Assembly (NCBI GenBank): GCA_030668825.1
Contig: DAOVET010000035.1
Location: forward strand, 1-25,166
Direction of reading: 5' to 3'
DNA from: Candidatus Heimdallarchaeota archaeon
GTDB taxonomy: Archaea > Asgardarchaeota > Heimdallarchaeia > Heimdallarchaeales > Heimdallarchaeaceae
DNA length: 25,166 nucleotides
In this document: in pieces, positions 7,946-24,092 of the stretch
Numbering within the stretch: position 1 is the first letter of the stretch
Layout: each line of letters opens with the position of its first letter
The notes under the pieces: model-generated
Seen by the model: the letters and a program-made list of their open reading frames with translations, nothing else
Told to the model about the DNA's origin: nothing
Database searches by the model: none
Translations under genes and position numbers: made by a program

Positions 7946-8019
7946 AGAGTTTAACCCATTTAATGAGAAGTTTACACTTAATAAAACCAGATTAATACAG
8001 TAATAACATTAGGGTAATA

Positions 8020-8038: not shown

Positions 8039-8068
8039 TTAGAACTTCCATGGATCACGAACATAAAC
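8039..8068 (-). repeat. Displaced direct copy of the last 10 codons of tfb (VYVRDPWKF*)
   Basis: ttagaacttccatggatcacgaacataaac versus 8441-8470 ctaaaatttccatggatcgcgaacataaac: 26/30 identical, and all 4 differences are at third codon positions. Confidence 0.92.
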
Positions 8069-8098
8069 TATTTCATCAAACATAGGAATTATGAGGGA

Positions 8099-8332
8099 TT
8101 ATTTGTATCTGGAGAGTATCTGTTCCAAATCTGAACCATATTCTTCTAGATATAATCTCTTTATATCTACGCAAGGAAAACAAAGTGAACCTTTAGTCTT
8201 ATAACACCAATTACAAAAAAAAGTTAAAATTCTTTTATCCTTGTTAATAGATGCATTAAACTCATCACAAAGTTGTTTTAATGTATCGTATAATTCTGTA
8301 GGATACTTGTTCCTAGCACCTTCCCATTTCAT
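8099..8332 (-). CDS. Small hypothetical protein with CxxC-x7-CxxC (putative Zn-binding); cargo between the tfb repeats
   Basis: 77-aa ATG ORF in otherwise free space, containing CNWC..CFPC, with a BRE/TATA-like element 25-32 nt upstream. Confidence 0.7.
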   Translation of the reverse strand: MKWEGARNKYPTELYDTLKQLCDEFNASINKDKRILTFFCNWCYKTKGSLCFPCVDIKRLYLEEYGSDLEQILSRYK

Positions 8333-8356
8333 TCTGTAAACAGTATGAAATTAAAC

Positions 8357-8371
8357 TAATAAAAGTTTTTC
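8357..8371 (-). promoter_or_regulatory. BRE + TATA box of the 77-aa gene (probably leaderless)
   Basis: Minus strand GAAAAAC-TTTTATTA, with the TATA 25-32 nt upstream of the ATG at 8332. Confidence 0.55.
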
Positions 8372-8440
8372 AAATAGAAGTTAAATCTGAAGGAGTAAAT
8401 AAATATCTAATATATTAAGAATTTGTGTATATTTAATTAA

Positions 8441-9403
8441 CTAAAATTTCCATGGATCGCGAACATAAACAGGTGCTGATGCTGCTCCTCTTTTTACGAT
8501 TACGTTAGCTAATTCTAAAGAGTCTACTATTTCTCGGAATCGATTTCGTAATGTAACTGGAGTTGTTTTTGCTACTTTAGCGACTTGTTGTTGAGTTCTT
8601 CTTTCACCAGTTCTGATTCCCGCGATATATATTGCGGCGGCGGCGACACTTAACGGATTCTTACCCATATCAAGTCTTCTTGATTTGCTCTCTTCTAGAA
8701 TTTTCAAAGCTTCATTCTGTGTAGCAGTTGTTAATTCAAGTTCATTACATAACTTAGTGAGTAAAACTGCAGGATCAATAGGTGTTGGTTTAATGTGTAA
8801 TTCCTGAACATATAATCTGAAACATCGAGCGATAACTTTCTTGTCTGCTCTGACATGTTTTTCAATATCTTTAAGTGTGGTCGGATTGTTATATTGACGA
8901 GCTGCAATGTATATTGCGGCAGCAACCATAGATTCAATGCTTCTTCCACGAATTAAATCCGCTTTCAAAGCTTTTCTATAAGTAGTAGCTGATGCTTCTG
9001 CTATCTCATCACTTAACTCAAGTTGACTTACTATTCTTTTCAGCTCTCTCAAAGCAATTCTCAGGTTTCGGATTTGGGATCGAGAATCTCTTCTATTAAG
9101 CCATCTCAATCTTCTCATCTTTGCCACAACATTTGGATCTAGTTTCTTACCAAAGATATCCATGTTACCAAAACTAATTTGAGATGAAACACCATAATCA
9201 GATTTTAGGGGTGATATTGGTGAACCAGTTCTACTCCGAGCAGCTTTTTCTTCTCCTGTAAATGCTCTCCATTCAGGAGTTGTATCAATTAATTTAGAAA
9301 CCACTAACCCACAATTACTGCAAATAGACTCACCACGAGTGTAGTCATCAATAATTTCCTCGGAGTTACAATTTGGGCAGCGCTCTTCACTCATTCCAGA
9401 CAC
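8441..9403 (-). CDS. tfb: Transcription initiation factor IIB (TFB); start GTG 9403 or ATG 9394
   Basis: Zn ribbon CPNC..CSNC, B-reader PEWRAF..RSRTGSP, and two cyclin repeats (LIRGRSIE..AAAIYIAAR; GKNPLSVAAAAIYIA; RTQQQVAKVAKTTPVTLRNRFREI). Confidence 0.97.
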   Translation of the reverse strand: MSGMSEERCPNCNSEEIIDDYTRGESICSNCGLVVSKLIDTTPEWRAFTGEEKAARSRTGSPISPLKSDYGVSSQISFGNMDIFGKKLDPNVVAKMRRLRWLNRRDSRSQIRNLRIALRELKRIVSQLELSDEIAEASATTYRKALKADLIRGRSIESMVAAAIYIAARQYNNPTTLKDIEKHVRADKKVIARCFRLYVQELHIKPTPIDPAVLLTKLCNELELTTATQNEALKILEESKSRRLDMGKNPLSVAAAAIYIAGIRTGERRTQQQVAKVAKTTPVTLRNRFREIVDSLELANVIVKRGAASAPVYVRDPWKF

Positions 9404-9427
9404 TCTAATTAAACATGCACATGAGAT

Positions 9428-9437
9428 TATATAAAGC
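9428..9437 (-). promoter_or_regulatory. TATA box of tfb
   Basis: Minus strand CTTTATATAA, about 25-34 nt upstream of 9403. Confidence 0.55.
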
Positions 9438-9622
9438 TAACTAAACAAAGGACGATAGAAGGCCCCTAACACCATAATTCAAATATGTGATGGGTGTTTG
9501 ATTAAATATCGGATTATCTGTTTAAATAGTCAAAGCATAATTCATATAGCTGTTTGTTGTATATTAAAACGAATGTACGATCCACAGAAAGACATTTTAA
9601 TAACAGTGAGACTGATTTCAAG

Positions 9623-11518
9623 ATGACAGTTTATTTGTCTGCACATTATAATCTGTCTTGCTTTAGGGGTGTAGTTACCAAAGATCACGCTGACAGATAT
9701 CAACAGATTATAGATTGGTTCGCAAGAGAACCACAGTTTAAAGGAACCATTTCCTTCAATACTCTTTTTCTCCAATCAATAATCTGGGAGAATGAATCTA
9801 TTGTAAAAGATATTTCCAAACTGTGTCTAGCAGAACAATTAGAGCTGTCAGCATCAATGTTTTCGAATTATGTTCCTTTTTCGTTAGATTTCGAAAATGA
9901 GATTCTTGAACACCAAATCAAATATGCGTCTAAAGAACTAAAAGACACTTATCCTGATAAGTATATTAAGGGGTTTTATCCACCCTTCAGTGTTTTTGAT
10001 GATCGAAATGTTGGTCACCTTGTTGACGAATCGTACAAGTATATAATAGTAGACTGGAGCATTTTAGATCGAACAATTAATGAAAAACCTATTGGAAGAA
10101 TAGATCCTAGTTTCTCCAGAGTCTTTAAACTGAAAGATAAAGACATTTATGTTCTTCCATCATATAATTTAAGAAGTGTTTATAGACTATATCCTGAATT
10201 TTATAAACAATACCTCAGTTCAGGTATTATTGACAGAGTATCAGAAGCTATCAGAAATGGAGATGAAATATCGGAGAAAGAAGGGATAGATTTATTCGGC
10301 ATATTAACTATTGATCTTAATGATTTAAAATTTCCAACCTTTAGATCTGATTTTGACTTTGATAGCTATTTCATTGAAAGTAAAAAATTACTTGATCAAC
10401 CTGTAAATTATGTTAGACCATCGGAAATCATAGAAAAATTCGATATCAAAGAAATCGATTTGAAGTATTCATTGCCTTATGAGATGATATTATCTTCTGA
10501 ATCTATACCGCTTATAGAAATATCTCCATGTTGTGAAAAACTAATTGAAATAGTAAAAGTGAATTTAAATAGAATCAAAAGGATAGAAAAAGCTGCAAGT
10601 TCGGTTGAAAGTGATCAAAAGAGTGCATTAGAAAATCTGATTAAGAATTCTTGGAATTATCTTCTAACAAATTTACATAATACCTACTTTTCACAATTTA
10701 ATGAACCAATTAAAGGAGTAGATGTTCTTGACTTTAGGAATATATGGAATAGCATTAATCATATTAACTTAGCAGAATTTATAGCAAACTCTTACAAAAC
10801 AGACAAAGTAACCAAAAAAGGCTTTGATATAATTGACCCAATTTGTGGAGATATGGTTTATTTCAATAACAAATTTCTCTGCAGTTTTCTACATAGGGGG
10901 GGTGTAATTAACAATCTAGTTAATCTCGAAAACGGAGAGTTTATAGCTTCTTCTCCATCGCCTAGCTTGATTGTAAACTCTGTAACCCAAGAACCCAATT
11001 TTGGTTTAATGTTTGATATAGTTTCTAAGAAGTACAGTGGCCAATATAATCTATTCAACGAAGGTTATGTAGCTAGTAGAAAAGATTTGACTGATGGAGT
11101 TGAAATCACTTTAAGTGTTTATGCAACGAGTGACATAGTTCTGAAGAAAATTTTTACAATCATAAACGATTCTAACAAAATTGACATTAAATACAGTTTT
11201 CAAAATAGAGGGATAGGCAAAGAAGAATTCATTCTTTATAGTCTCTCTAAATTTAATATGGGAGATTATATAGCACCAATATTTTCACAAGAGAATCTCG
11301 TCCTAGAAAACATATCAAGTTCAAAAGATTTTGTAATTCTGGAGTTAAATAATGAAAAAACAAACTCAAAGGTAAAAATAACTCTACCTGAAGAGATTAG
11401 ATATGATAGTAAGAAGCGTTTTCGTAATTTAGAATTAACTCTGAGAATGAAAGTACCAATCTTAGAATTACATGAGACAAAAAATTTTGTTTTTAACATA
11501 GAGATTGAGAAAAAATAG
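9623..11518 (+). CDS. GH57-like (amylase/4-alpha-glucanotransferase fold) protein, divergent, with C-terminal beta-sandwich
   Basis: The order and spacing of GH57 conserved regions are recognisable: LSAHYNL, QLELSASMF, IKGFYPPFSVFD, YKYIIVD, LTIDLND. The C-terminal part is beta-rich (HRGGVINNL...KKIFTI..IDIKYSFQN). ATG at 9623 preferred over TTG at 9554. Confidence 0.6.
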   Translation: MTVYLSAHYNLSCFRGVVTKDHADRYQQIIDWFAREPQFKGTISFNTLFLQSIIWENESIVKDISKLCLAEQLELSASMFSNYVPFSLDFENEILEHQIKYASKELKDTYPDKYIKGFYPPFSVFDDRNVGHLVDESYKYIIVDWSILDRTINEKPIGRIDPSFSRVFKLKDKDIYVLPSYNLRSVYRLYPEFYKQYLSSGIIDRVSEAIRNGDEISEKEGIDLFGILTIDLNDLKFPTFRSDFDFDSYFIESKKLLDQPVNYVRPSEIIEKFDIKEIDLKYSLPYEMILSSESIPLIEISPCCEKLIEIVKVNLNRIKRIEKAASSVESDQKSALENLIKNSWNYLLTNLHNTYFSQFNEPIKGVDVLDFRNIWNSINHINLAEFIANSYKTDKVTKKGFDIIDPICGDMVYFNNKFLCSFLHRGGVINNLVNLENGEFIASSPSPSLIVNSVTQEPNFGLMFDIVSKKYSGQYNLFNEGYVASRKDLTDGVEITLSVYATSDIVLKKIFTIINDSNKIDIKYSFQNRGIGKEEFILYSLSKFNMGDYIAPIFSQENLVLENISSSKDFVILELNNEKTNSKVKITLPEEIRYDSKKRFRNLELTLRMKVPILELHETKNFVFNIEIEKK

Positions 11519-11539
11519 AATAATGAGAAAGTAAGGATT

Positions 11540-13426
11540 TTACTTTCGATTTGTTTTATTCTTTTTGTTAATCGCGTAACCTGTTACTAGGAGAGAAAAT
11601 AGAATTGATAAAGTTGCATAAGGAGATGTTGATGTTGGTGTCTCAACTTCAAGCACGACGTTAAATAGTATGGTTGAATTAAACTGATTTCCAGCTTTAT
11701 CTTCCACCATCATAATTACAGTATAATTTCCATCTTCTACATAATTGTGGAACGCAAAATGATCATCAGTAACATTCTGAACTACACCATCGTCCCAAAA
11801 AATCCAGACTCTTTCTATTCCTGCATACGTATCAGAATAGTCAAAATAAACTTCAACATAACCATCAGTTATTGCTGTATCATTTGAAGTATGACTAGTG
11901 ATTTCCAATGTAGGATTTTCGAAGTCAAGATAGATAATTGTAGAAACTGTGGCATTTACTAATACAGGAGCATCATTAACTCTTGTAATGTTAATTGTAA
12001 CATATAATGTCGCGTTATATTCTCCTGTAACTTGGGGATAATAATGAACACTTGTATTTGTTTCAACATCCATAATATCAGTGATTGGTGTTCCATCATC
12101 AAAATCCATTTCAACACTATAAAGCGACCCTCGAGAAGTATCAATTTCGTAGTAAAAAGTCACATTATAGTCGTTTGTGTAGGTGTTATTCACAGGATAT
12201 AAACTAATCTCTGGAACTGAATCGTAGATGTACAACAATTTCATTGTTCCGCCTGTTTCATTGTAAAACGCACCATAATAGAGATTGTACGCTTCATAAT
12301 GCAAAATATTCCCTTTGGAGAATGAACCAATAGAAACAAAGTATTCTCTTATTGTATCAGTGTGCCCATCTTCGTTTTCTACTGTATAATTTCGATTAAG
12401 TGTTGCTTCGACTTCAGTAAACGGAATTATTTCTGTATCATTATCTAGACCTTGTGTTACAAAATATCTGATTCCATATTTTTCTACATCTGTTGAATTG
12501 TGAGTAGTAATATTAAACTCTAAGTCATCTAAATCGGTTATTTTTCCTTCTTGTAATGGATTTGATTCAAAGTAAAATCCATTGTAAATCATATACACAT
12601 TTAGCTGAGTTCTGACTTCATTTATACCGCCCCAAGTATCCCAACCATATGAATTGTTCGCGCTGAAGAAAATCGTTCTATCCGTAAATTCTAACGTTGT
12701 GTTGAAAATAACAGAAGTTGTAGTTATATTTCCTTCTTGCCAATCCATTTCAATAAATGATACATCACCATTAAATGTGCCTAAAGCGACATCAGTAATC
12801 GGATCTCTGTACTTCGACAATGCTAAAGTCACTGTATCATTTTCTGTTCCACCATAGATTTCGTAGCGGATCGCTATTGTATTATTTGTTTGATTAGAAG
12901 GAGTATAGTAGATGAAATTGTTTTGTGTCACAGTTGCATTATCAATACTATGAAAAGCAGGAGGTGTCCCTTCTTCTGTAACATAGAGATAGTGCCATGG
13001 TCCTAAATGATTAAAATTTTCTAATACTTCATAGGTTCCATTAGTGATATCACCAATCCAAGCATAACCCTTGAATGAGGTTAAACCAGTTAAACTGAAA
13101 TTTCCGTTATAATATGAACGGTCAACTAGAGAGTAGGAGAAATTTAATGCTAAGCTGGTTTCGGGGGTTAGACTCAGGTTTGAACCAGAACCTACTATTA
13201 ATATTCCACTGATACCTACGAAACGGTCTACGGAATACTCAACTGTTATAAAAGTGAGATTTGGGAAATTGATTCCTTGAAAATCTTCGAGCCCTTCAGC
13301 TACTAGGCTTTCTAAAATCGGTTCTGTAGGACTAGCAGCATGCATTTTCGGATCGAATGATCCAAGTCCCAATGAAAGTGTTATCAGTATTATAACTACA
13401 AAGGTATATGTCTTTTTAATGTTCAT
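11540..13426 (-). CDS. Secreted/cell-surface glycoprotein with PKD/Ig-like domains and C-terminal membrane anchor
   Basis: Signal peptide MNIKKTYTFVVIILITL and many N-x-S/T sequons. PKD-like segments DFDDGT..HYY..GEYNATL and WDDG..HNYVEDGNYTV..VEDKAGN. Ends with a Thr/Ser/Pro linker, TM helix and basic tail. Confidence 0.8.
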   Translation of the reverse strand: MNIKKTYTFVVIILITLSLGLGSFDPKMHAASPTEPILESLVAEGLEDFQGINFPNLTFITVEYSVDRFVGISGILIVGSGSNLSLTPETSLALNFSYSLVDRSYYNGNFSLTGLTSFKGYAWIGDITNGTYEVLENFNHLGPWHYLYVTEEGTPPAFHSIDNATVTQNNFIYYTPSNQTNNTIAIRYEIYGGTENDTVTLALSKYRDPITDVALGTFNGDVSFIEMDWQEGNITTTSVIFNTTLEFTDRTIFFSANNSYGWDTWGGINEVRTQLNVYMIYNGFYFESNPLQEGKITDLDDLEFNITTHNSTDVEKYGIRYFVTQGLDNDTEIIPFTEVEATLNRNYTVENEDGHTDTIREYFVSIGSFSKGNILHYEAYNLYYGAFYNETGGTMKLLYIYDSVPEISLYPVNNTYTNDYNVTFYYEIDTSRGSLYSVEMDFDDGTPITDIMDVETNTSVHYYPQVTGEYNATLYVTINITRVNDAPVLVNATVSTIIYLDFENPTLEITSHTSNDTAITDGYVEVYFDYSDTYAGIERVWIFWDDGVVQNVTDDHFAFHNYVEDGNYTVIMMVEDKAGNQFNSTILFNVVLEVETPTSTSPYATLSILFSLLVTGYAINKKNKTNRK

Positions 13427-13513
13427 ATCTCTTCACTTCAGCCTTGCTTGGTTGTGGTATTTAAAAGCTATTTTTATGCTTTATGTATTATGTTTTTTGT
13501 TTTAGAGTCCTTT

Positions 13514-14071: not shown

Positions 14072-14096
14072 TTTTCAATGAAAAAGTCTTTGCGGA

Positions 14097-14106
14097 TTAT
14101 ATATAA
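14097..14106. promoter_or_regulatory. Palindromic TATA element (TTATATATAA) in the pdaD/glnA divergent intergenic region
   Basis: Located 26-35 nt upstream of the pdaD ATG on the minus strand. Confidence 0.5.
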
Positions 14107-14217
14107 TTGTCGAACAAGCATACATTATACAGAAATCTACCGAATAAATACTTTCACAAAAACATATATATTAATCTGGATTTTTCTTTTTTACAGCCAA
14201 ATGGTATGATATATCTC

Positions 14218-15513
14218 ATGGATGAACTGGAAGAGTTTTTCAGAAAAAATAACATTGAGTTTATTCAATTTCAATTTACAACTATATTTGGAGATTTAAA
14301 GTCAGTCGAATTTCCTTCAAATATCTGGGAGGAAATGAAAGATGGAACCGGAGTGGATGGATCTTCCTTAGGATTCTTAAAAACTGAACAGAGCGACATG
14401 AAGATAGTTCCTGATCTATCAACTTTAGCTGTTTTTCCCTGGGAACCAAGAATGGCAAGATTCATTTGTGATGTTTATGGGAATGATGGAAACCCCCATC
14501 CAACTGATCCTCGGAGTATTTTGAAAAAAGTAATTAAACATGCTAATAGTTTAGGGTATGAATTCAAGACACGACCTGAACTTGAATGGTACTTCTTAGA
14601 CTTAGATTTTGAACCATATGAATCTGGTGGATACATGGATACTCTCCCTTATGATGAATTAGGGTATCTTCGACGAAATATTGCAAGCGATATGCAAAAA
14701 ATGGGTATTGCAGTTAAAACAATTCACCATGAAGTTGGTAATGGTCAACAAGAGATTGAATTCGCTGCTTTAGAGGTGTTAAAGCAGGCAGATGACACAC
14801 AAACTGCGAAAATGATTGTCAAAGCAGATTCTCTTTTTAATGAAATTTTTAGTACTTTCATGCCAAAACCTTTTGCTGATCAAGCTGGAAGTGGAATGCA
14901 TGTTCATCAATATCTTACCAAAGATGGAAAGAATATCTTTGCAGATGAAGAAAAAGGCATCAGTGATACATTACGCTATTTTGTTGGAGGAATTTTGAAA
15001 CATGTAGATGCAATGACTGCACTCTTCAATCCAACAACAAATTCTTACAAAAGATTGGTTCCTGGTCATGAAGCTCCTGTTTACAAATCTTGGGGAGTTG
15101 CAAATAGAACAGCTTTGATTCGAGTTCCGGGATACGAAAAGAAAGCAAGAATCGAATTTCGTGCAACAGATGCTGCTTCAAACATCTATCTGGCTTCAGC
15201 TTTGCTTCTAGCTTCAGGTTTGGATGGGATCAAGGATATGATCGAACCAATTCCTTCTACAACTAAAAATGTTGAAACTTTATCTGTTGAGGAAAGGAAA
15301 AGTATGGGGATTGTTCAGTTACCTAGTAGTTTATCTGAAGCTCTGGACTTTTTGGAAAAAAGCTCTTTCGTAAAAGAAACCCTTGGTCAAGACATTCTCG
15401 ATATATTTCTAGCTGTTAAAAGAATGGAATGTAAGGAACATGCTAAAGCTAAAAATAAAGGCGAAGAAGAAGAATGGGAATGGGAGCATGAAACCTATCT
15501 TGACAGAACTTAA
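14218..15513 (+). CDS. glnA: Glutamine synthetase type I family (start 14218 or 14206; TTG 14107 unlikely)
   Basis: Motifs DGSS, PELEWY, HHEVGNGQQEI, TFMPKP..GSGMHVH, NSYKRLVPGHEAP, NRTALIRVP and RIEFR. Confidence 0.93.
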   Translation: MDELEEFFRKNNIEFIQFQFTTIFGDLKSVEFPSNIWEEMKDGTGVDGSSLGFLKTEQSDMKIVPDLSTLAVFPWEPRMARFICDVYGNDGNPHPTDPRSILKKVIKHANSLGYEFKTRPELEWYFLDLDFEPYESGGYMDTLPYDELGYLRRNIASDMQKMGIAVKTIHHEVGNGQQEIEFAALEVLKQADDTQTAKMIVKADSLFNEIFSTFMPKPFADQAGSGMHVHQYLTKDGKNIFADEEKGISDTLRYFVGGILKHVDAMTALFNPTTNSYKRLVPGHEAPVYKSWGVANRTALIRVPGYEKKARIEFRATDAASNIYLASALLLASGLDGIKDMIEPIPSTTKNVETLSVEERKSMGIVQLPSSLSEALDFLEKSSFVKETLGQDILDIFLAVKRMECKEHAKAKNKGEEEEWEWEHETYLDRT

Positions 15514-15620: not shown

Positions 15621-17687
15621 CTGAGTTATGAACGTGAAGATATTGTCGAATTAGACTTCCAAGAATTGGATCTTCCTGAAGTAACTCTATCAAAAACAAG
15701 AAAATCACAAATAATTTCACAACTCTATCTATATAGAGAAATTAACTTAAAATCGTTTTCTGAGCAGACTGGCGTTCCCATCGTAGCAATAAAAGACTAT
15801 ATACAGTTACTCATTCAAGCTCTTATTCTGAGGGGGTACTACAGAAAAAACAGATTTGTTCTAGTATCTGCATACAGATATCCAAGGGTGAATCCAGGAA
15901 AATTAAGCAATCTTAGAAGAAATTTGTTAGGAGTACTAGTAAGCAATCAAAAAATCGATATCCATTTTCTCCGCAAAATTTTGAACATTTCTTCTGATGA
16001 ACTAATATCACATCTTCTATTCCTCACTGTCAGAGGGTTATTCATTGGAAGTCTGAGAAATCAAGAGATATTAGTTCAAAAAACATGGATGCCTTTCGAG
16101 AAAGTAAAAATCAGTTCTGATGATACATTTATCATAGGAACATGTATGCTTTTGCGAGATGCAGATTTAAGCAAAGTAGCAAAACTAACAGGTTTCACTA
16201 GAGATGGAGTATTTAACACAATTGCTAAGCTTATGTTGTATAACAAATTGGAAGCTTCATTTGAAGTTTCTGGAGGAATTGTTGGTTCTAGTAAAATTTC
16301 CGTAAACGTTAAAAAGTACCTGATTGCTCCGCGCACTTTACCCATGGAAGCTCTTCAAGGTGATGAAAGATCTGTAGTTGGGTATACTATATTGAAGAAA
16401 GAAGTAGATATAGAGGAATTAGCAAAATACCTTGATAAAAAAGAAAAAGAAGTAGTCAAAATTATTGCCTTCTTAACTGCAAGGGGTACTTTTCAATTTA
16501 TATTTAATGAGAAAAACAAGATAGTACCAGTTATCATTCCTGATACACAACCAAATCAAACAATAGAAGAAATGGCTACTTTATCATTTTTCAATTACGA
16601 AGCGTTGTTTGGTTTATTATCAACTCAAGAGCGAATTCCTCTCAGGAAACTTGCTACTTTGATGAATAGAGAAGTTGACGAAGTCTTAGAAGGTGTAATG
16701 AATCTATACCTAGAGGGATTTGTTACTTGTACATTAAAGGGTGCCACAATTCATGTAGATAGCCTCAAAAGGTATAGCAGAACTCAAGAAGGAACACTTG
16801 AAAGATGGGAAAAAATTGTACTGGGCATGATAATTGCAAAAACATCTATCACTACTAAAGACATCGAAGACGCATTAGGAATTGACAAAAATCATGCTAA
16901 AGAAAGAATGTATGGATTTTATGGAAAGGGTTTAATCAAAGGCAATATCACGGGAAATAAACTTGAACCTGAAGAAATTCCTATATTTCCTCCTTTGGTT
17001 CAACTAGATGATCTTCCAATTCATTATCAGGAAATTTTTGGTTACATTATTTCAAACTCTAGAGTTTCATTTAAGAATATAATGAAATTCTGGGAAAAAA
17101 CACTTGTTGCATCAAAGAACATTGTTTACGAATTAACAGGTTCTGGTCTGATGAATATATCTTCACGTGGAAGTACTGTAACATTAGTTTCAAGCCAAAA
17201 ATTCCTACCAAATAAACAGTTGAACGAACTAGGTGAAATTTACACAAGAGTTGTAAATGAGATTGAAAAATCAAGAAGAAAAAGGATTAAGTTAACAACA
17301 ATTGCAAATTCTGTTAGAATGGAATCTTTAGATTTGTTCAAGATGTTATGCCAGCTACTCTCCCATGGGTATTATAAAGGAGTATTAACTTCAGCTTATT
17401 TTGAAAGAGTTGGCAAAATATTATTACCAGTGGGCAAAAATTATTGCCTTAATTGTGGGCATGTAATAAAATCTTCTACTGAACCATGCAGTAATTGTAT
17501 GCTGTTGCATCAAAAATGTATGGTTTGTCAAGGATTAATTAAGAAGGGTGATAAAGTGAAGGAATGCCCAACTTGTAACAATGTTGCTCATGATGATCAT
17601 TTGGAACAATGGATGAAGATAAAGCAAGAATGTCCGATATGTAAAACTAGAATTTCGAAAAGAAATCTAAAAAAATATTCAGTATAA
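15621..17687 (+). CDS. Protein with about 8 tandem winged-helix (PCI-like) repeats + Zn ribbon + RING-variant finger; start uncertain (CTG 15621 or TTG 15666)
   Basis: A unit of about 75 aa (h-G-hh...I.h..LA..h......h...h..L...G.h.G.h) repeats 8 times. C-terminus CLNC..CSNC, then CMVC..CPTC..HDDH..W..CPIC. Confidence 0.75.
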   Translation: MSYEREDIVELDFQELDLPEVTLSKTRKSQIISQLYLYREINLKSFSEQTGVPIVAIKDYIQLLIQALILRGYYRKNRFVLVSAYRYPRVNPGKLSNLRRNLLGVLVSNQKIDIHFLRKILNISSDELISHLLFLTVRGLFIGSLRNQEILVQKTWMPFEKVKISSDDTFIIGTCMLLRDADLSKVAKLTGFTRDGVFNTIAKLMLYNKLEASFEVSGGIVGSSKISVNVKKYLIAPRTLPMEALQGDERSVVGYTILKKEVDIEELAKYLDKKEKEVVKIIAFLTARGTFQFIFNEKNKIVPVIIPDTQPNQTIEEMATLSFFNYEALFGLLSTQERIPLRKLATLMNREVDEVLEGVMNLYLEGFVTCTLKGATIHVDSLKRYSRTQEGTLERWEKIVLGMIIAKTSITTKDIEDALGIDKNHAKERMYGFYGKGLIKGNITGNKLEPEEIPIFPPLVQLDDLPIHYQEIFGYIISNSRVSFKNIMKFWEKTLVASKNIVYELTGSGLMNISSRGSTVTLVSSQKFLPNKQLNELGEIYTRVVNEIEKSRRKRIKLTTIANSVRMESLDLFKMLCQLLSHGYYKGVLTSAYFERVGKILLPVGKNYCLNCGHVIKSSTEPCSNCMLLHQKCMVCQGLIKKGDKVKECPTCNNVAHDDHLEQWMKIKQECPICKTRISKRNLKKYSV

Positions 17688-17699
17688 TGGTAGATTTTG

Positions 17700-18011
17700 A
17701 TGGAACTTCATAAAATACAAGACGAAGTGTATAATTTTCTAAAGGAAAGAGATTGGTTTAAATATTCTCCAAATGATGTTCTTATTCATCTGTACGAGGA
17801 ATTAAGTGAAATCGGAAAACACCTGCTGTTCAAATCAAAGTATAAAGAAGAAAGTGGTCATTCAAAGCCAGATGAAGAAGAATTACCAAGGGAATTTGCT
17901 CAAGCATTTTCGTTGTTCTTACAACTCTGTATTCTGCTAGATGTTGATTTAGAACAAGCTTGGAAAAATGAGATAAAAATAATGAGAGAAAGATTTCCAA
18001 TAGATAAATAA
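17700..18011 (+). CDS. MazG-like all-alpha NTP pyrophosphohydrolase
   Basis: F.KERDW, LYEELSE, EFAQ, LDVDLEQA and ERFP resemble the dCTPase/MazG-like family. Confidence 0.75.
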   Translation: MELHKIQDEVYNFLKERDWFKYSPNDVLIHLYEELSEIGKHLLFKSKYKEESGHSKPDEEELPREFAQAFSLFLQLCILLDVDLEQAWKNEIKIMRERFPIDK

Positions 18012-18038
18012 AAATATCAATTAGGGAGAAGTTAGTAA

Positions 18039-18773
18039 ATGAGTGACAAAAAGAAGAGTAAACCTCGAACGAAGAAGACCACAAAAAAAATCTTTGTTGA
18101 TGTTAAAGGAGTATCAAAAAGCTATCAAATGGGTGAGATAGAGGTTCAAGCTCTAAAAAATGTGTCACTTGTTTTAGGTTTAGGAGAAATAATTTCAATT
18201 GTTGGACCTTCAGGAAGCGGTAAGACGACCCTATTGAATGTTATTGGAGCTTTGGACTATGTTGATTCTGGATCCATTAGCATTAATCGAAAGAAATTAA
18301 GTTCAATGAGTGATAAAGAACTAAGCTTTCTTCGAAGAGATACCATAGGGTATATTTTCCAAAATTTTAACTTACTAGAGGAAATTAATGCTGAAAAAAA
18401 TATTGAAATGCCTTTAATTCTAGCGAAGCTAGAAAAAGAAGATCGTAAAAAGAGGGTAGAGGAACTGTTAGAATGCGTTGATCTTATCGAGAGAAGAACA
18501 CATAATCCTGATCAACTATCAGGAGGAGAACAACAAAGAGTTGCAATAGCAAGAGCTTTAGCTAACAACCCAAAATTACTCCTTGCTGATGAACCCACAG
18601 GAAATCTAGATTCTATAACAGGAGAAAAAGTTCTAAAATTACTCATAGACCTGAGTAAAAATCAAAATAAAACACTAATTTATGTTACTCACGACGTCGA
18701 ATCAGCCACTTTGGCTGATAGACAACTATATATGAGTGATGGCAAAATTGTAAAAGATATTTCCTCTAAATAG
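18039..18773 (+). CDS. ABC ATP-binding protein, LolD/MacB/FtsE-like family
   Basis: Walker [19 protein letters not shown], signature [24 protein letters not shown] and VTHD. Confidence 0.93.
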
Positions 18774-18885
18774 AGATAGGGTGCCTTTTTACAATTAGAA
18801 ATAACTTTTAAAGTTGTTACTTGATAAAATTATAAAAATAAATTTTATTTTAAAGAAGCAGAGATTTGAAAGTTAGTGAAAAAAA

Positions 18886-20640
18886 ATGGGTTATAAACGC
18901 TGGTTTCTGAAACATCTACTAAAAGAGAAATTACTATCCACAATATTGCTAGCATTTCTCTTAGTATTTATTGGAACAGTCTCTATAACTCCATTATTTA
19001 TAGGGAATATTTTTAATGAATTAGCTAGTGAAAGTAGCTCATTTAAAACAATAATGAGTATTGCTTTATTTATCGCAGGAGCGGGAGTAATCAGAGCAGT
19101 TGCAGATTTTACACAGAGTTATGCAAATGAGGTTTTAGCTCATAAAATTACCAAAAATGTTACTGAAGAATTCTATGAAGATATGTTAGAGAAGAGTCAA
19201 GAATTTCATGATAGAATTAGAATAGGAGATGTGATGGCAAGAGCTACATATGATACACGTCAAATGAACATTTTCATTTCTCCTGGAATAAAATTTCTAT
19301 TTGAAGCATTTTTTACACTACTCTTTTCGGTTTCTCTAATGATTTGGATCAGTCCAAAATTAACACTTCTTCTAGTAGCAGCTCTGCCTTTCTATATAAT
19401 AGCAATGTATGAGTATAATAAAAAATTGCGTCCAATTTCTAAAGCTCAAATGGAACAGAATAGTCTTTTGAATGCCAGATTACAAGAAAGTGTTACAGGA
19501 ATCAGAGTGATTAGGGCTTTTGTGAAAGAAGAGAAAGAGATAAATGAGTTTGATGATGAAACAGATAAATTACGAGATATAAATACTCGAAGAGGAATTC
19601 TTAGTGCTCGTTATTATGGAGTTGTGGTAACAGTGTTGATCATCGCTTTCAGCTTCTTATGGGGATCATATGAAGTAATTAACGGAGATTTAGCTCTTGG
19701 TTATTTGATTACCTATGTCTTTCTAATGATGACTTTGATGATGCCTACTTGGCAAATTGGTTGGGGGATCACACAATTTCAAATAGGAATGGCAGCTGCA
19801 AAAAGAATTTTTGAAATGAAAGAGAGAGAGGAGTACGTCCCAGAATCTTCATCACCTATAGAATGGCAAAGTAAACAAGGAACAATCAGTTTCATGAATG
19901 TCTCTTTCTCTTATAATAGAGGAAGCAGTAGAAAAGAAGCGCTTAGCAATATCAATCTAGAAGTCCCTGGAGGATCCACTGTAGCAATCATTGGTAATCC
20001 AGGATCAGGTAAATCCACACTAATAAAGTTACTAATGAGACTTTATGATCCTACACAAGGGAGTATATTCATTGATGGGGTTAATATTAAGGACATGCGT
20101 CTATCCAATCTCAGAGATCACATAGGTGTTATTGAACAAGAAGTATTTCTTTTCAGCAAATCAATTAGGGACAATATAGCATATGGAAAACCAAATGCAA
20201 CTAAGGAAGAAATAGAAGAAGCTTCTGAATTAGCACAAGCTCATGAATTCATAATGGGTTTTGAAAAAGGATATAATACAATTATCGGAGAAAGAGGAGT
20301 TACCCTTTCGGGGGGACAAAAACAAAGAATTGCAATTGCTAGAGCATTGCTAGTTGATCCTTCATTTTTAATTCTTGATGATGCAAGCAGTGCCATAGAT
20401 GCAGAAACGGAAAGAAAAATCCAAACAGCAATAGCTAATGTATTAAAAAATCGAACTACATTTATTATCACACACAGGTTAGCCACAATTAAGCATGCAG
20501 ACATTATCATAGTTTTGAGAAATGGTTTACTTAAGGACAGCGGATCCCATGATGAACTTATTCTAAGAAATATCGATTACAGAAGATTGTTTGAAAGGTT
20601 TTCTGAGCTTCCACCAATGACAACAATGGAGGAGAACTAG
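18886..20640 (+). CDS. Type IV ABC exporter half-transporter (TMD+NBD), subunit with non-canonical Walker B
   Basis: About 6 TM helices, GNPGSGKST, LSGGQKQR and LILDDASSAID (catalytic Glu replaced by Asp). Confidence 0.93.
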   Translation: MGYKRWFLKHLLKEKLLSTILLAFLLVFIGTVSITPLFIGNIFNELASESSSFKTIMSIALFIAGAGVIRAVADFTQSYANEVLAHKITKNVTEEFYEDMLEKSQEFHDRIRIGDVMARATYDTRQMNIFISPGIKFLFEAFFTLLFSVSLMIWISPKLTLLLVAALPFYIIAMYEYNKKLRPISKAQMEQNSLLNARLQESVTGIRVIRAFVKEEKEINEFDDETDKLRDINTRRGILSARYYGVVVTVLIIAFSFLWGSYEVINGDLALGYLITYVFLMMTLMMPTWQIGWGITQFQIGMAAAKRIFEMKEREEYVPESSSPIEWQSKQGTISFMNVSFSYNRGSSRKEALSNINLEVPGGSTVAIIGNPGSGKSTLIKLLMRLYDPTQGSIFIDGVNIKDMRLSNLRDHIGVIEQEVFLFSKSIRDNIAYGKPNATKEEIEEASELAQAHEFIMGFEKGYNTIIGERGVTLSGGQKQRIAIARALLVDPSFLILDDASSAIDAETERKIQTAIANVLKNRTTFIITHRLATIKHADIIIVLRNGLLKDSGSHDELILRNIDYRRLFERFSELPPMTTMEEN

Positions 20641-20641
20641 T

Positions 20642-22519
20642 ATGTCAAAAGAAGATGAATTCAAGAAGTCATATGATAGACAATATTCTGATATTGAACT
20701 ATTAAAACGATTTTGGAGATATCTGAAAGTATACAAAAAATATCTTCTCTTTATAATAGTAGGTATTTTAGCAACAGCTGTTGTTACTATCCTCCCACCA
20801 TCTATGGTTCAAAGTGCTTTTGAAGCTTTGGCAGATAGAACTAACCCTTTCCCTCAAGCAATCGATTTTATGCCAACATCACTTTTCTTATGGAAATTTC
20901 AAATAAACTTGTGGAGAGCTGTTTACCCCTATGCAATTGGATATGTTCTTCTATCATTATTCTTATGGCTAGCCCAAGTACTTCTAGGGATCATTGTAAC
21001 CATTGTTTCACAAAAGATAATCAAACGCATTCAAATGGAAACCTATGAGAGTTTACAAGAACATGATTTGAGGTATTTTGACACGCAGTCAACAGGTCAA
21101 ATAATGAGCAGAATAACAAATGATTCCCAAGAACTGAATGATATGATCAACGTTGTTTCACAGTTTGTAGCTAATTTCTTCATATTATTTGCAGTACTGA
21201 TATGGATGTTCGTTGTAAATTGGAGACTGACATTTATCACACTTGGAATGGCTCCTTTTGTCTTTATTGTTGCTTTTTTCTTCAGAAGAATAACAAGATT
21301 AACCACTGGAAAATGGAGAGCATCAATTGGAGAGGTAAATGCTTCTTTCCAAGAGAGTGTAGCGGGGATTTCAGTAGCTAAAGCATTTGGAAGAGAAAAG
21401 AAATCTAAAGAAGAATTCGAAGTAATAAATCAAGCCACTTTCTATCACGCGAAAAAGAGAGCTTTTGCTGTGATGGGTATTTGGCCTTTGATGGATGGTA
21501 TAAGTACTATTGGTGTGTTTGGAATCACTCTCTACGGTAGTTGGTTATTCTTTGGAAGTCTGGCTTCGTCAGATGTTATTTTACTGTTCCTCCTACTTCT
21601 CAATAGATTCTTATATCCTCTTGTAAGAGTAGCATCACAGTTTTCAATTATACAAAGTGGTTTTGCAGCCATGGAACGCATTTTTAGTATAGTTGATGCT
21701 AAAAAGGAAATCACTAATCCAGCTAATCCAGTCAGTAAAGAGTTGCAAGGACAAATCACTTTCGAGGATGTTTTTCATCAATATGTTCAAGGAGAACTCG
21801 TATTAAATAATATCAATCTTAAGATTCAACCAGGAGAATCTGTAGCCGTGGTGGGCCATACAGGAGCCGGGAAGACAACCATTGCTTCCCTGTTGATGAG
21901 ATTTTATGATATCTTCAAAGGTTCCATCAAAATTGATGGTGTTGACATTCGAGATTATGACTTACATAATTTAAGATCACAGATAGGATTGGTAAGTCAA
22001 GATGTTTTCCTATTTAGTGGAACTGTTCTAGATAATATTAGATATGGAAGTCCTGAAGCAAGCTTATCACAAGTTCAAGAAGTTATCAACATAGTTTCAG
22101 CTCAGGAATTCATAGACGCTTTACCTGATGGTTTAGAGACTGAATTAGGAGAACGAGGTAAGGGTCTTTCAGCTGGACAGCGTCAAATGGTTTCATTTGC
22201 TAGAACATTATTAACTGATCCTAAGATATTAATTTTGGATGAAGCTACAGCTGCAGTGGATGCTTATACTGAATGGAAAATCCAAGAAGCACTCGATAAG
22301 CTTCTAGCTGACAGAACTTCGATAGTAATAGCTCATCGTTTAACAACTATAAAGAATTCAGACAGAATCATAGTTCTTGATCAAGGTAAAATAGTTGAAG
22401 AAGGAGATCATGAAGGCCTAATGAAAGAGAAAGGATTATATTCAGAGCTTTATGAGACTTACTTTAAACATCAATCTGCAGAATGGATAGCAGAAATAAG
22501 TGATGTATTTACTGATTAA
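20642..22519 (+). CDS. Type IV ABC exporter half-transporter (TMD+NBD), partner subunit
   Basis: TM domain, GHTGAGKTT, degenerate signature LSAGQRQ, LILDEATAAVD and IAHRL. Starts after a 1-nt gap following the partner gene, with SD GGAGGAG. Confidence 0.93.
   Translation: MSKEDEFKKSYDRQYSDIELLKRFWRYLKVYKKYLLFIIVGILATAVVTILPPSMVQSAFEALADRTNPFPQAIDFMPTSLFLWKFQINLWRAVYPYAIGYVLLSLFLWLAQVLLGIIVTIVSQKIIKRIQMETYESLQEHDLRYFDTQSTGQIMSRITNDSQELNDMINVVSQFVANFFILFAVLIWMFVVNWRLTFITLGMAPFVFIVAFFFRRITRLTTGKWRASIGEVNASFQESVAGISVAKAFGREKKSKEEFEVINQATFYHAKKRAFAVMGIWPLMDGISTIGVFGITLYGSWLFFGSLASSDVILLFLLLLNRFLYPLVRVASQFSIIQSGFAAMERIFSIVDAKKEITNPANPVSKELQGQITFEDVFHQYVQGELVLNNINLKIQPGESVAVVGHTGAGKTTIASLLMRFYDIFKGSIKIDGVDIRDYDLHNLRSQIGLVSQDVFLFSGTVLDNIRYGSPEASLSQVQEVINIVSAQEFIDALPDGLETELGERGKGLSAGQRQMVSFARTLLTDPKILILDEATAAVDAYTEWKIQEALDKLLADRTSIVIAHRLTTIKNSDRIIVLDQGKIVEEGDHEGLMKEKGLYSELYETYFKHQSAEWIAEISDVFTD
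22348..22519 (+). repeat. Direct repeat copy 1 (functional 3' end of the ABC gene)
   Basis: Matches 23841-24012 at 168/172 nt. Looser similarity (ATTACAAAA-ACTGCAA) continues about 21 nt past the stop. Confidence 0.95.
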
Positions 22520-22610
22520 ATTTTATTACAAAAACTGCAAGTTTTAGAATATCTCGGTAGTATGAACATCTATAAAATTAGAATACCGACCTTTATAAAA
22601 TTAACTTAGA

Positions 22611-23810
22611 TTACCGAATTTTATGTTTTTTTGCAGAATCTATTGCAGTAGCTATTGTCACTTGACATACTTTTTTAATGAAATTAAAGTCTAGCTTATC
22701 AATTGTATCTGCTTCTGTATGGTAAAATGGATATCTGAAATTTGCTGAATCAGTTATCATTAATGCAGGAATTCCTTCAAGCCAAAAAGGTGCATGATCT
22801 GATCTCAATAGATCAAAAAATCTCTTAGCTATTGTTTCAAAACTCAATGGTATTCTTATTCTTATATAAGGTAGTTGAATGGAATCATTTTTACATTGTT
22901 TGCTGAATGATTTTGCTAGCATTTTTGATTTTTTATCACTCACTACTGTGATGAAATTACCAATTGCTTTAAACTGTTTAACTTTGTAGCTGGGAAATAG
23001 AATTGGATGCATTAATGGTGGATAAATTTGAGAGTTTTTTCTTTTTGCGGTATAGCCTACAGTTTCATTATTTATAACTCCAATTATTTCTCTCTTATCT
23101 CTCATAGCTTTTGCAACCCATTCACTGCTCCCAACCATTCCTGCCTTTCCTATCCAAGATGTATAAGTGTCCTTAGAATATAGCTGACTTATAAATTCAA
23201 AATACTTCTTCTCTTGATCTGTAAGCTCATTCATAATCTCTTTTAATGCAAGTTCCCATGACTCTGCTAATGTTCTTCCCTTTGCTACATTTCTATAAAC
23301 GAAATTAAAACACTCTTTATACATTTTTTGTGTATGATAAGTTAAAAACCTATAATTCTCATCCATTAATTCTAATTCCTGTGCCAACTTTAGCTGTTTT
23401 AATTCTCTTGAAGGATTAAATTCTTCTAAAGTAAAACTTACAAAACGAATATTGTTAGTTTCCTTTTCTTTCGCTAAAATTCTAGCTGCTTCCAGCATTA
23501 TTGCAATAGCAGATCCATTATCATTTGCTCCAGGTGCATTTATGACCGTATCATAATGACTAGTAATCAATACTTCTGGACCAGAACTATTTTCAAAATA
23601 TCCTTCAATATTTCTAAAAGACTGATCAAAATCTTCAATTTTGAATACTTGTTCTTGAACTTGTAATCCATATTTCATGAATTTATTTTTTATATAATCT
23701 GCTGTTTCATCCAATTTTTTTTGTGCCAATATTGGATGTTTAATTCCCTCAACATTCAAGATATGTTGGTATAATCTCTCTATATCAACCTGTTCAATAA
23801 TGTCCTTCAT
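22611..23810 (-). CDS. M28-family zinc metallopeptidase (start ATG 23810 preferred; 23864 lies inside the repeat)
   Basis: Motifs SHYDT, PGANDNGSA, FTLEE, NNETVG, RSDHAPFW and FYHTEADT. Confidence 0.9.
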   Translation of the reverse strand: MKDIIEQVDIERLYQHILNVEGIKHPILAQKKLDETADYIKNKFMKYGLQVQEQVFKIEDFDQSFRNIEGYFENSSGPEVLITSHYDTVINAPGANDNGSAIAIMLEAARILAKEKETNNIRFVSFTLEEFNPSRELKQLKLAQELELMDENYRFLTYHTQKMYKECFNFVYRNVAKGRTLAESWELALKEIMNELTDQEKKYFEFISQLYSKDTYTSWIGKAGMVGSSEWVAKAMRDKREIIGVINNETVGYTAKRKNSQIYPPLMHPILFPSYKVKQFKAIGNFITVVSDKKSKMLAKSFSKQCKNDSIQLPYIRIRIPLSFETIAKRFFDLLRSDHAPFWLEGIPALMITDSANFRYPFYHTEADTIDKLDFNFIKKVCQVTIATAIDSAKKHKIR

Positions 23811-23840
23811 CTGTAACATTAACATAAAGTTATACATGTT

Positions 23841-24012
23841 TATAAAGAATTCAGACAGAATCATAGTTCTTGATTAAGGTAAAATAGTTGAAGAAGGAGA
23901 TCATGAAAGCCTAATGAAAGAAAAAGGATTATATTCAGAGCTTTATGAGACTTACTTTAAACATCAATCTGCAGAATGGATAGCAGAAATAAGTGATGTA
24001 TTTACAGATTAA
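23841..24012 (+). pseudogene. Direct repeat copy 2: orphan 3' fragment of the ABC exporter gene with a nonsense change
   Basis: Differences from copy 1: CAA->TAA (23875), GGC->AGC, GAG->GAA and ACT->ACA. Confidence 0.92.
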
Positions 24013-24092
24013 TTCGATTACAAAACACTGCAAAGGACATCACCTTCTTGTTTATTCCAGATTTCTGAAAGGAGAGCTTGAAACAGCAGATA

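Follow-up and report, generated by a model that had tools for sequence, protein, structure and literature searches.

The window analysed here, the whole 25,166-nt stretch of the Candidatus Heimdallarchaeota archaeon contig DAOVET010000035.1, raises the question of how an intact gene comes to be followed by a cargo gene and then by a second, diverged copy of its own 3' end, and whether a mobile element, the cell's own recombination or an assembly error is responsible. The preliminary description had seen this layout at two loci, tfb (transcription factor B) and an ABC exporter, and both repeats proved to be real, with periods of 402 and 1493 nt (Table 1). The tfb repeat comprises 29 nt (8040-8068 and 8442-8470, 26/29 identical), with at most 11 consecutive identical bases between the tail copies; together with the first stop-codon base it covers 30 nt and four differences (CGC/CGT, AAA/AAG, TTT/TTC, TAG/TAA), all of them synonymous or stop-to-stop. 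The repeat search of the window gave 193 nt for the ABC repeat; its copies A and B are 95.9% identical over 194 columns (blastn), with a longest identical run of 83 nt and four differing coding sites, and copy B carries a private in-frame CAA>TAA at repeat offset 35. No further copy of either repeat was found in the 2.76-Mb assembly (blastn). The tfb cargo encodes a 77-aa protein (ORF77, no Pfam family) with 22 homologue clusters of about 77 aa, of which the named ones are Heimdallarchaeota. The ABC cargo is an M28 peptidase gene, listed as an ORF at 22611-23864 (minus strand), whose native ATG is the 10th codon (about 23835-23837) according to the alignment with G021 (G numbers denote genomes, G000 being the assembly under study). 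The joint lies about 3 nt from this start codon, so that no promoter was brought along and the TATA-like element proposed for M28 has to be abandoned.

Table 1 Features of the two loci and their surroundings (window positions).
Feature	Position	Strand	Basis or remark
sepF	7586-7945	-	Pfam SepF; old downstream neighbour of tfb; directly before the tfb end in 10 relatives
Displaced native tfb 3' end (last 9 codons + TAA), now non-coding	8039-8068	-	Sister comparison
Imported cargo segment with ORF77 (8099-8332) and its 108-nt upstream region	8069-8440	-	Absent from 10 empty-site relatives
Putative imported 3' part of tfb: attached repeat copy (8442-8470) and donor-type tract	8441-8672	-	Private sites
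tfb, intact	8441-9403	-	Pfam TFIIB repeats and Zn ribbon
ABC exporter, intact	20642-22519	+	Pfam
Copy A, attached to the ABC gene: 172 coding nt including stop, and 21 nt	22348-22540	+	
Cargo segment, M28 peptidase gene (stop 22611, native ATG about 23837)	22541-23840	-	Pfam Peptidase_M28
Copy B, displaced native ABC 3' end, decaying	23841-24033	+	Match to G009
Old sequence downstream of ABC	24034-24059	+	Uninterrupted in G009 and, in G000, from C14:1371 onward (contig C14)
Separate inserted element, left end: orf106 (24093-24413) and small serine recombinase (24400-25137; gene as described 24400-25164)	24060-25166	-	Runs off the contig

G000 is a MAG of an uncultured Asgard archaeon, 2.76 Mb in 138 contigs, 90.6% complete and with 4.67% contamination, a source in which co-occurring strains or species might be collapsed into a chimeric contig; such a mis-assembly had been named beforehand among the things that would refute the loci. 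The whole tfb cassette is bridged by single Logan contigs in 3/4 runs (3 studies; contigs 7000-10384 with 0 differences, 7290-8630 and 7290-8620), both junctions thus being crossed by non-branching contigs, and the 11 consecutive identical bases shared by the tfb copies are too few for a graph join. At the ABC locus, a 1388-nt Logan contig (22483-23870) links the end of copy A through the cargo to the start of copy B in 4/4 runs. The Logan contigs stop within the 193-nt repeat and taken alone leave the link between the ABC gene and copy A unproven; however, the 83-base run identical in both copies is shorter than an ordinary read, the four differing coding sites tell the copies apart, and G013, an independent MAG of a second species, has the complete layout of ABC, M28, copy B and recombinase at 94.7% identity. 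We regard an artefact as highly improbable.

Empty sites, which the preliminary description had predicted in relatives, are present at tfb, at ABC and at the C22 and C48 loci found elsewhere in the assembly. The tfb region aligns to 10/60 relatives (G009, G012, G013, G018, G024, G006, G010, G001, G020, G023) as two pieces overlapping by exactly 29 nt. The ABC site of G009 has a single tail followed by the sequence found 3' of copy B, and M28 is absent from this site in G009, G012 and G006. G009 is also empty at C22 (203-nt overlap); C48 is empty in 4/5 sisters (436-456-nt overlap), and the same four-gene cargo is present in G009. Donor-like layouts were found in more distant congeners: G003 and G019 have the order sepF-ORF77-tfb and only one tfb end, and in G021 ORF77 adjoins sepF, with no duplicate. 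Relatives of M28 in G015 and G021 have other neighbours or lie at contig ends; the search among the relatives for a donor in which ABC and M28 are native neighbours was negative, which counts against the reading preferred below.

At both loci, comparison with these genomes shows the gene-attached copy to be of foreign type and the displaced copy to be native in type (sister-like), the foreign-type sequence exceeding the repeats and covering about 230 nt in tfb and about 1 kb in ABC. G009, G018 and G024 have one tfb end each, which the displaced copy matches at 30/30 positions, and the 40 nt downstream of this copy are identical to G013, G018 and G024; the attached copy ends in TTT TAG, the sequence being TTC TAA in 5/5 sisters. 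Nine of the 13 coding sites private to G000 fall within the 3'-terminal 231 of 962 nt (8442-8672; binomial P=7e-4, the tract statistics resting on five sister MAGs related to each other), and variability among the sisters is not raised in this stretch. None of these nine alleles occurs in the five sisters, four recur singly in more distant relatives (G006, G014, G019, G010), and five are in none of 14 relatives; the putative donor lineage of the tfb tract is unsampled. The post-stop stretch of ABC copy B and the next 26 nt match the single copy of G009, whereas the post-stop stretch of copy A matches copy A of G013 only. The sites shared by G000 and G013 against G009 and G012 number 64, with 56 in 21250-22250 and 7 in 19000-21250, so that the 3' kb of ABC (about 21250-22250) is a haplotype common only to G000 and the cassette-bearing G013; a later homologous exchange between those two species could be an alternative source of this tract. 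Within G000 and within G013, copies A and B resemble each other more than they resemble their counterparts in the other species; gene conversion between the two copies may have followed the insertion.

The expectation that more loci of this kind exist genome-wide was borne out. For each of 2353 ORFs, the 6 kb downstream were scanned with the final 30 nt of the ORF as probe, giving 13 ORFs with at most six mismatches in 30, compared with 0 and 0 for the reversed and reverse-complemented control probes; nine fragment-type loci remain after removing three tandem paralogue pairs and counting C48 once. Beyond the nine there are three further candidate loci and two to three mirror-image duplications of 5' ends (at C4 and C90). 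The excess of 3' over 5' ends (9 versus 2-3), which is not significant at these numbers, is not predicted by a purely neutral recombination model and counts against the reading preferred below. Repeat lengths in G000 are between 29 and 457 nt (tfb 29, ABC 193, C22 203, C48 457), the inserts measure 0.4-5.9 kb, and the cargo includes the 77-aa protein, the M28 peptidase, YbjQ/DUF2085, PAP2, radical SAM, TetR and patatin genes, among others. For one and the same cargo, the displaced fragment has 590 nt in G013 and 47 or 73-77 nt in G000. Gene ends are reused, as in the FTHFS arrays (at C27, copies 8608-8866, 14229-14300 and 14841-14913) and at the C33 locus, used in three species. The C74 locus, the only one with a multi-copy hairpin repeat, was set aside.

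The cassettes had been described as integrase-less and without a core motif common to their junctions, and the nine loci agree with this. Recombinase families (Pfam) have 0 matches among the cargo scanned, that is, 15 ORFs at the seven loci outside the window, ORF77 and M28; the tyrosine recombinase family PF00589 has 0 matches in the assembly (controls 14/14), an absence that is not proven at 90.6% completeness. The longest words shared by the junctions have 8 and 10 nt, lengths reached in 192/200 and 46/200 shuffles and hence within expectation. The assembly has only three Resolvase genes (in C29, C80 and C90, the C90 one at least 15 kb from the C90 loci), and 8/9 loci have no recombinase in or beside them, the ABC locus being the sole one with such a neighbour. 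This neighbour, the serine-recombinase element, is a separate element present in only part of the population: its right end is in C14:1-1370, where about 33 nt of the target recur in diverged form; in runs X7 and X8 the contigs join 24059 straight to C14 sequence, and depth drops after 24059. The same element occurs in G022, beside a NosD-like gene. A role for the adjacent serine recombinase, proposed previously, therefore finds no backing, since the element is separate and separately polymorphic and no recombinase lies near the other cassette loci.

The most probable origin of these loci is a gain of genes through homologous recombination that used the conserved gene as its anchor, the other side being closed by an illegitimate joint or by the single crossover of a circle. 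They look like scars of additive gain from related Heimdallarchaeota through the cell's own recombination and not through a site-specific integrase; among the routes listed in the preliminary description, homology-facilitated uptake of, or single crossover with, DNA of relatives is the one that fits the evidence best. A piece of a relative's chromosome carrying the 3' part of the conserved gene (tfb, ABC exporter) and the adjoining donor gene would pair and recombine with the recipient copy of that gene, the homologous anchor, and its non-homologous end would be joined to the recipient within the tail of the same gene. As this joint would lie inside the tail, the recipient's own tail (29 nt, 193 nt) would end up as a dead fragment on the far side of the cargo, and donor sequence would form the new end of the gene. 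A circularised donor fragment might alternatively enter by a single crossover, followed by trimming of the displaced copy, with the same product; linear and circular donors are indistinguishable because displaced copies shrink with time. RadA-type recombination proteins would presumably be the machinery. At the M28 joint, the upstream sequence of G021 resembles the ABC tail in a loose match, ATAAAGA..GACA, suggestive, for M28 only, of microhomology at the illegitimate joint.

The loci might instead be non-autonomous integrative cassettes (CIME-like or decayed elements) with the gene tail within their attachment site and a recombinase acting in trans, for example one of the three small serine recombinases. 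This would agree with the precise restoration of the genes, as by attP-borne replacement ends, and with the reuse of hot spots and the formation of arrays (FTHFS copies, C27); the repeated use of the same gene ends also fits a targeted process and in this respect counts against anchored homologous recombination. A recombinase-bearing element with its own diverged direct copy of an approximately 33-nt target lies just 26 nt from copy B and, being polymorphic in the population, moved recently; however, it has borders of its own and another locus in G022. Integrative cassettes are further at odds with the donor-type tracts, which extend 230 nt and about 1 kb past the repeats or lie outside them, with the place of ORF77 next to tfb in G003 and G019 as a normal part of the chromosome, with repeats ranging from 29 to 590 nt at junctions sharing no common motif, and with the scarcity of recombinases (none in or beside 8/9 loci, no tyrosine recombinase match in the assembly), and we consider them unlikely. 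A true long target duplication, in which distant staggered breaks of the recipient are filled in around the incoming DNA, would make both copies the recipient's own, diverging later. Its outcome is that of the class described for bacterial restriction-modification genes (repeats >30 bp, no mobility genes, some repeats over gene 3' ends; PMC2853133), and the ABC copies being more alike within G000 and within G013 than between species would agree with it, a likeness for which gene conversion between the copies accounts equally well. At exactly the positions where the attached tfb copy departs from the sister consensus, however, the displaced copy agrees with it, private or foreign sites go on past the repeat, and the post-stop stretch of copy A is of another type than those of copy B and G009, all of which makes this duplication quite improbable.

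There is also a small chance that the duplicated ends are working parts of an integrase-free pop-in/pop-out traffic of cassettes in Heimdallarchaeota, in which recombination between the copies would free small circles (402 nt, 1.5 kb and others) that would be exchanged between species and integrate again at the end of the same conserved gene. If true, this traffic would build FTHFS-type arrays and explain why 3' ends predominate, why hot spots are reused and why the ABC copies evolve in concert, and it would mean that the archaea most closely related to eukaryotes gain genes in this way across the lineage.

Several known systems resemble the loci in part. Integrative elements targeting the 3' ends of genes or tRNA genes, and CIMEs, restore the target with a replacement end and leave the displaced end at the far border; tandem arrays reportedly lie beside tycheposons. 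The replacement 3' end, the displaced end at the far border, the hot-spot arrays and the cargo-only units are features in common. The differences from integrative elements and CIMEs are the 8/9 loci without an integrase in or near them, the donor tracts outside the repeat and a tfb cargo that is native chromosomal content in other species; a cognate integrase acting on the repeats was not found in the 90.6% complete assembly, nor a conserved crossover core across the nine loci. Integron gene cassettes and CALINs, with an attC-type site at each border and an IntI-type tyrosine recombinase, are likewise single promoterless genes stacked at one site, but the assembly has no PF00589 match and the borders of the window cassettes are gene tails instead of a shared attC-like site, with no common motif in the word comparison (C74 hairpin family set aside). 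In the Campbell-type single crossover of a non-replicating circle (insertion-duplication, pop-in), the homology segment is duplicated directly around the insert. As here, a gene whose end lies within the segment remains intact, and the repeats permit pop-out and gene conversion; in contrast, donor sequence is predicted within the duplicated segment only, whereas the tracts found here are longer than the present repeats, so that later trimming of the displaced copy must be assumed, which is plausible given that one cargo has displaced fragments of 590 and 47 nt in the two species.

Insertion with long target duplication has been described in bacteria for restriction-modification genes (Furuta et al. 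2010, PMC2853133), with no archaeal case surviving the screen of that study. As in the cases presented there, genes are inserted relative to a close relative, the flanking repeats of tens to hundreds of bp both correspond to a single copy in the genome that lacks the insert, neither a transposase nor an integrase is encoded by the insert, and the repeats are unique in the genome, some of them over a gene 3' end. By the measures of that study, inserts missing from a close relative with both flanks aligning were found at tfb, ABC, C22 and C48; the repeats are longer than 30 bp at ABC (193 nt), C22 (203 nt) and C48 (457 nt), with tfb (29-30 nt) on the threshold; and the inserts are free of mobility genes and, at 0.4-5.9 kb, below 20 kb. 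The cargo consists of ordinary genes of an Asgard archaeon instead of bacterial restriction-modification genes, whose presence is a requirement of that screen and not of the mechanism. The attached copy is here of donor type and inside a longer donor tract, which points to anchored homologous exchange and not to a filled-in staggered cut.

Displacement ascribed to homology-facilitated illegitimate recombination (HFIR) has been described for the T6SS effector-immunity arrays of Vibrio cholerae and for rhs loci, whose 3' regions are left as orphans (Kirchberger et al. 2017, PMC5361080). The two situations share a conserved anchor, new counterpart-less genes behind it, an old 3' end orphaned downstream, arrays built by repeated events and no involvement of an integrase; a donor-type anchor on one side was found at both tfb (8442-8672, P=7e-4) and ABC (56/64 sites). 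There, the incoming 3' end is another toxin tip and the orphan keeps its immunity gene; here, in an archaeon and as a candidate case of HFIR, the incoming tail replaces the old one with nearly the same sequence, and the orphan is a dead fragment. We found no description of such insertions in Asgard archaea in the literature searched, but the same outcome is described in both bacterial studies (PMC2853133, PMC5361080), and the earlier suggestion of an undescribed route is in general not supported. The proposal of cassettes captured by 3'-end replacement is supported for its layout, empty sites and recurrence, and not for the recombinase role, the M28 promoter and this novelty: what the loci record looks like a kind of event already described in bacteria, and not like a new mobile element.

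The window, 25,166 nt long, is the entire contig C29. Annotation identifies in it sepF, a 77-aa ORF (ORF77), tfb, two ABC exporters, an M28 peptidase, an ORF of 106 aa and a gene for a small serine recombinase. The two direct repeats are as the preliminary description had them (repeat search, blastn), and no additional copy of either was found in the 2.76-Mb source assembly, G000. This is a metagenome-assembled genome (MAG) of 138 contigs (33% G+C, 90.6% complete, 4.67% contaminated), and the window sequence is present in 20 runs from 12 studies of cold-seep and marine-sediment metagenomes. The compared genomes are MAGs except two, ORF calls were crude (longest ORF, greedy overlap removal), and the evidence on junctions comes from assembled contigs of four public runs, not reads. 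The window also encodes a 673-aa protein combining a PCI-domain match with a C-terminal RING finger, a eukaryote-like pairing.

Coordinates and sizes of duplicated gene ends and associated features (window positions unless a contig or genome is named)
Locus	Feature	Coordinates	Size, spacing or identity
tfb	29-nt direct repeat	8040-8068 and 8442-8470	spacing 402; 26/29 identical
ABC/M28	193-nt direct repeat	22348-22540 and 23841-24033	spacing 1493; 95.9% identical (blastn)
ABC/M28	open M28 frame in displaced ABC fragment	23838-23864; upstream ATG at 23864	9 codons
Behind ABC/M28	serine recombinase element	starts 24060; ends in C14:1-1370	
PCI/RING protein	coding region	15666-17687	
C22	M20 peptidase anchor		203-nt repeat, 95%
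C116	radical SAM anchor		132 nt
C33	607-aa protein anchor		47 nt
C48	GDPD and PHP genes		457 nt
C27	FTHFS anchor		three to four copies
C90	GH1 anchor		75 nt
C4	5'-end duplication	21598-21662 and 26450-26512	4.8 kb of inserted genes between
C90	5'-end duplication	6138-6277 and 6892-7031	0.75 kb of inserted genes between
C74	hairpin repeat	C74:1796-1842 and 3037-3083; C60:14188-14236	~47-68 nt
G027	fragment-type case	549352-549648 / 552622-552920	

Relatives lacking the cargo, predicted in the preliminary description, were seen at both loci of the window. Among 60 relatives searched with window 7400-9500, ten have an empty tfb site, in which two alignment pieces overlap by exactly 29 nt and the sepF region lies directly 3' of tfb with a single copy of the 29-mer (identity 94-97% in the five sister genomes G009, G012, G013, G018 and G024, lower in G006, G010, G001, G020 and G023). 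Eight additional relatives have the flanks 40-60 nt apart without cargo, and the G000 layout occurs in 0/60. Alignments of G003 and G019 are continuous across the cargo, with ORF77 between sepF and a single tfb end; ORF77 also lies beside sepF in G021. Judged by its sequences, ORF77 is a genuine gene family of 22 clusters (62-99% identical, nearly all 77 aa, the named ones from Heimdallarchaeota).

The displaced tfb copy, beyond the cargo, is 30/30 identical to G009, G018 and G024, and its downstream flank is also of the sister type. The attached copy, in the intact gene, ends in TTT TAG versus TTC TAA in 5/5 sisters; all four differences between the copies are silent. Of the 13 tfb coding substitutions private to G000, nine lie within the 231 nt (of 962) nearest the 3' end (binomial P=7e-4; the sisters are interrelated, so independence is overstated here and in the ABC tract statistics); positions that vary between sisters show an even spread. 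None of the nine clustered alleles occurs in the five sisters, four recur singly in distant relatives and five were found in 0/14. The sister-type displaced copy, the foreign attached end and the private substitutions piled at the 3' end suggest that the cargo was imported in one piece with some 230 nt of tfb, about 600 nt in all, from an unsampled donor lineage; the recipient's old tfb tail would have been left as 29 nt behind the cargo.

At the ABC locus, G013, which is another species, has the same layout across window 16478-25166 (94.7% identity). The predicted site without M28 is that of G009 (94%), where a single ABC tail is followed by the same 26 nt that follow the displaced copy (copy B) in G000, and then by sequence continuing into G000 contig C14 from base 1371; in G012 and G006 the ABC homology ends at the stop codon and M28 is absent. 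Copy B, which has a private in-frame stop, belongs with its flank to the G009 type, and the post-stop stretch of the attached copy (copy A) is common only to copy A of G013. Sites at which G000 and G013 agree against G009 and G012 lie mostly in 21250-22250 (56/64), with seven in the 2250 nt upstream; inside the 193-nt repeat, G000 sides with G009 at seven sites. In our reading, about 1 kb was imported here and copy B subsequently converted copy A; such gene conversion would also explain the likeness of the two copies within each genome.

The homology of M28 to its G021 relative ends at the copy B border, about 3 nt from the native ATG, so M28 arrived without a promoter; the TATA-like element of its own that the preliminary description gave this gene does not fit a joint at that position. 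Nine codons 5' of the native ATG, inside the displaced ABC fragment, the open M28 frame has another ATG; the protein may thus have a longer N-terminus, or transcription may start within the fragment. As native ABC-M28 donors we rejected G015, in which M28 has a different convergent neighbour and the contig ends, and G021, in which it lies on a 2.6-kb contig with other neighbours; the native donor layout was not found, the search for related loci giving just two, in G013 and G021.

The genome-wide scan envisaged in the preliminary description revealed further loci. The last 30 nt of each of 2353 ORFs (>=90 aa) were searched in the downstream 6 kb, and with <=6 mismatches 13 ORFs matched, versus none in either control (reversed or reverse-complemented probes). 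Once three full-length tandem paralogue pairs (C20, C9, C96) were dropped and C48 was counted once, nine loci remained in which an intact gene is accompanied by cargo and a fragment of its tail: the two of the window, C22, C116, C33, C48, C27, C90 and C74, the last afterwards set aside. BLAST adds C39, C127 and C5, where the repeat ends a few bases before the stop codon. Mirror-image duplications of 5' ends were found in C4 and C90, and another site in C116 may be a further case; those in C4 and C90 comprise the first 60-140 nt of the gene from the ATG, with or without upstream sequence. Tails are commoner than 5' ends (9 vs 2-3), a difference that is not significant.

In the sisters, the C22 site is empty in G009 and the C48 site in 4/5, G009 having the C48 cargo too; the donor-tract test at C48 gave no informative pattern (flanks 83-92% identical, G009 contigs breaking there). 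At C33 and C27, G013 has the same cargo as G000 with displaced fragments of 590 nt, and G012 and G024 have other fragment lengths. The C116 cargo is in no sister and its borders are not clean; its radical SAM anchor gene is degraded in G012 to three short pieces (C177:2598-3001). C5 gave only paralogue matches at 68-69% in the sisters, with no information on insertion. In the first 1.2 Mb of G027, a closed genome of the same family, there is one clear fragment-type case. Most perfect 30-nt matches there were rejected as such cases, being exact tandem segmental duplications; five were seen (721, 3810, 3350, 5432 and 3000 nt, 99.9-100% identical), which arose very recently or else are artefacts of assembly.

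The C74 repeat was set aside: its sequence, a hairpin with a T-run, occurs again in C60 and many times in G012, G013 and G018, and it may be a different phenomenon. It flanks a PAPS-reductase gene, a small RING-finger ORF adjoins the locus, and in G012 this site is occupied by another insert of about the same size. In G013 (contig C45) the same type of repeat stands between successive small inserts, resembling a cassette array.

The serine recombinase beside the ABC locus, proposed earlier as a trans-acting route, belongs to an insertion of its own, 26 nt beyond copy B. At its C14 end, roughly 33 nt of target recur as a diverged direct copy before the chromosome resumes. The element encodes the small serine recombinase (about 245-262 aa), the 106-aa ORF and genes of no assigned function. 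Contigs in two of the four runs (X7, X8) join 24059 directly to C14 sequence and depth drops after 24059; the element is therefore missing from part of the population. It recurs in G022 (96%) beside a NosD-like gene, as two modules in tandem, and in G016 at another locus. Neither a tRNA (ARAGORN, 0 genes in the window, C14 and the G009, G022 and G016 loci) nor a known RNA (Rfam, 0 matches) was found as its target.

These data argue for recombination anchored in a conserved gene rather than site-specific integration. The attached copy is foreign, foreign tracts exceed the repeat length, donor-like chromosomal layouts exist in other species and repeat lengths range from 29 to 590 nt. No border motif is common to the loci, as the preliminary description had already remarked for its two junctions, and no recombinase family was matched by the window's two cargoes, described there as integrase-less, or by 15 scanned cargo ORFs of seven loci outside the window. 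The 2.76-Mb, 90.6%-complete assembly has three Resolvase genes; for the tyrosine recombinase family PF00589 it gave no match, not even a Xer-type one (controls 14/14, including four archaea). Contigs of the four runs contain neither a joint that bypasses 8069-8441 or 22541-24033 nor a back-joint, such as excised, circular or empty forms would give; contigs cannot show absence. Under anchored recombination, incoming DNA would recombine within the conserved gene on one side; the other side could be an illegitimate joint inside the recipient's tail, as in homology-facilitated illegitimate recombination (HFIR), or else a circularised fragment could enter by single crossover, the displaced copy being trimmed afterwards. 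The donors are unsampled lineages.

The loci give base-level before/after views of single genes entering a Heimdall-group Asgard chromosome without mobile-element machinery, and indicate that DNA exchange by homologous recombination persists between species that differ by about 5%, as well as between more distant ones. That such insertion may be common is suggested by the dozen or so loci of the 2.76-Mb assembly, by fragments that sisters have at the same hot spots and by the closed genome, with at least one clear case in 1.2 Mb. If so, part of the variable gene content needs no viruses, transposons or tRNA-integrating elements, and displaced gene tails could be simple markers for detecting and dating gene gains in MAGs.

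Asgard gene-flow work, in the excerpts available of PMC8813620, centres on viruses, transposons and tRNA-integrating elements; a term search of this Heimdallarchaeum genome paper gave neither 'direct repeat' nor 'att site', and our literature search found no account of such insertions in Asgard archaea. The preliminary description spoke of a route undescribed in this lineage, should it prove genome-wide; as a general claim this is not supported, the mechanism class being already known from bacteria. According to the available excerpts, the outcome in G000 matches the 'insertion with long target duplication' of PMC2853133, in whose screen no archaeal case survived, and the HFIR model for displaced 3' ends in T6SS and rhs arrays (PMC5361080). 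Given this known bacterial class, the G000 loci are a solid and useful example of it, not a surprising one.
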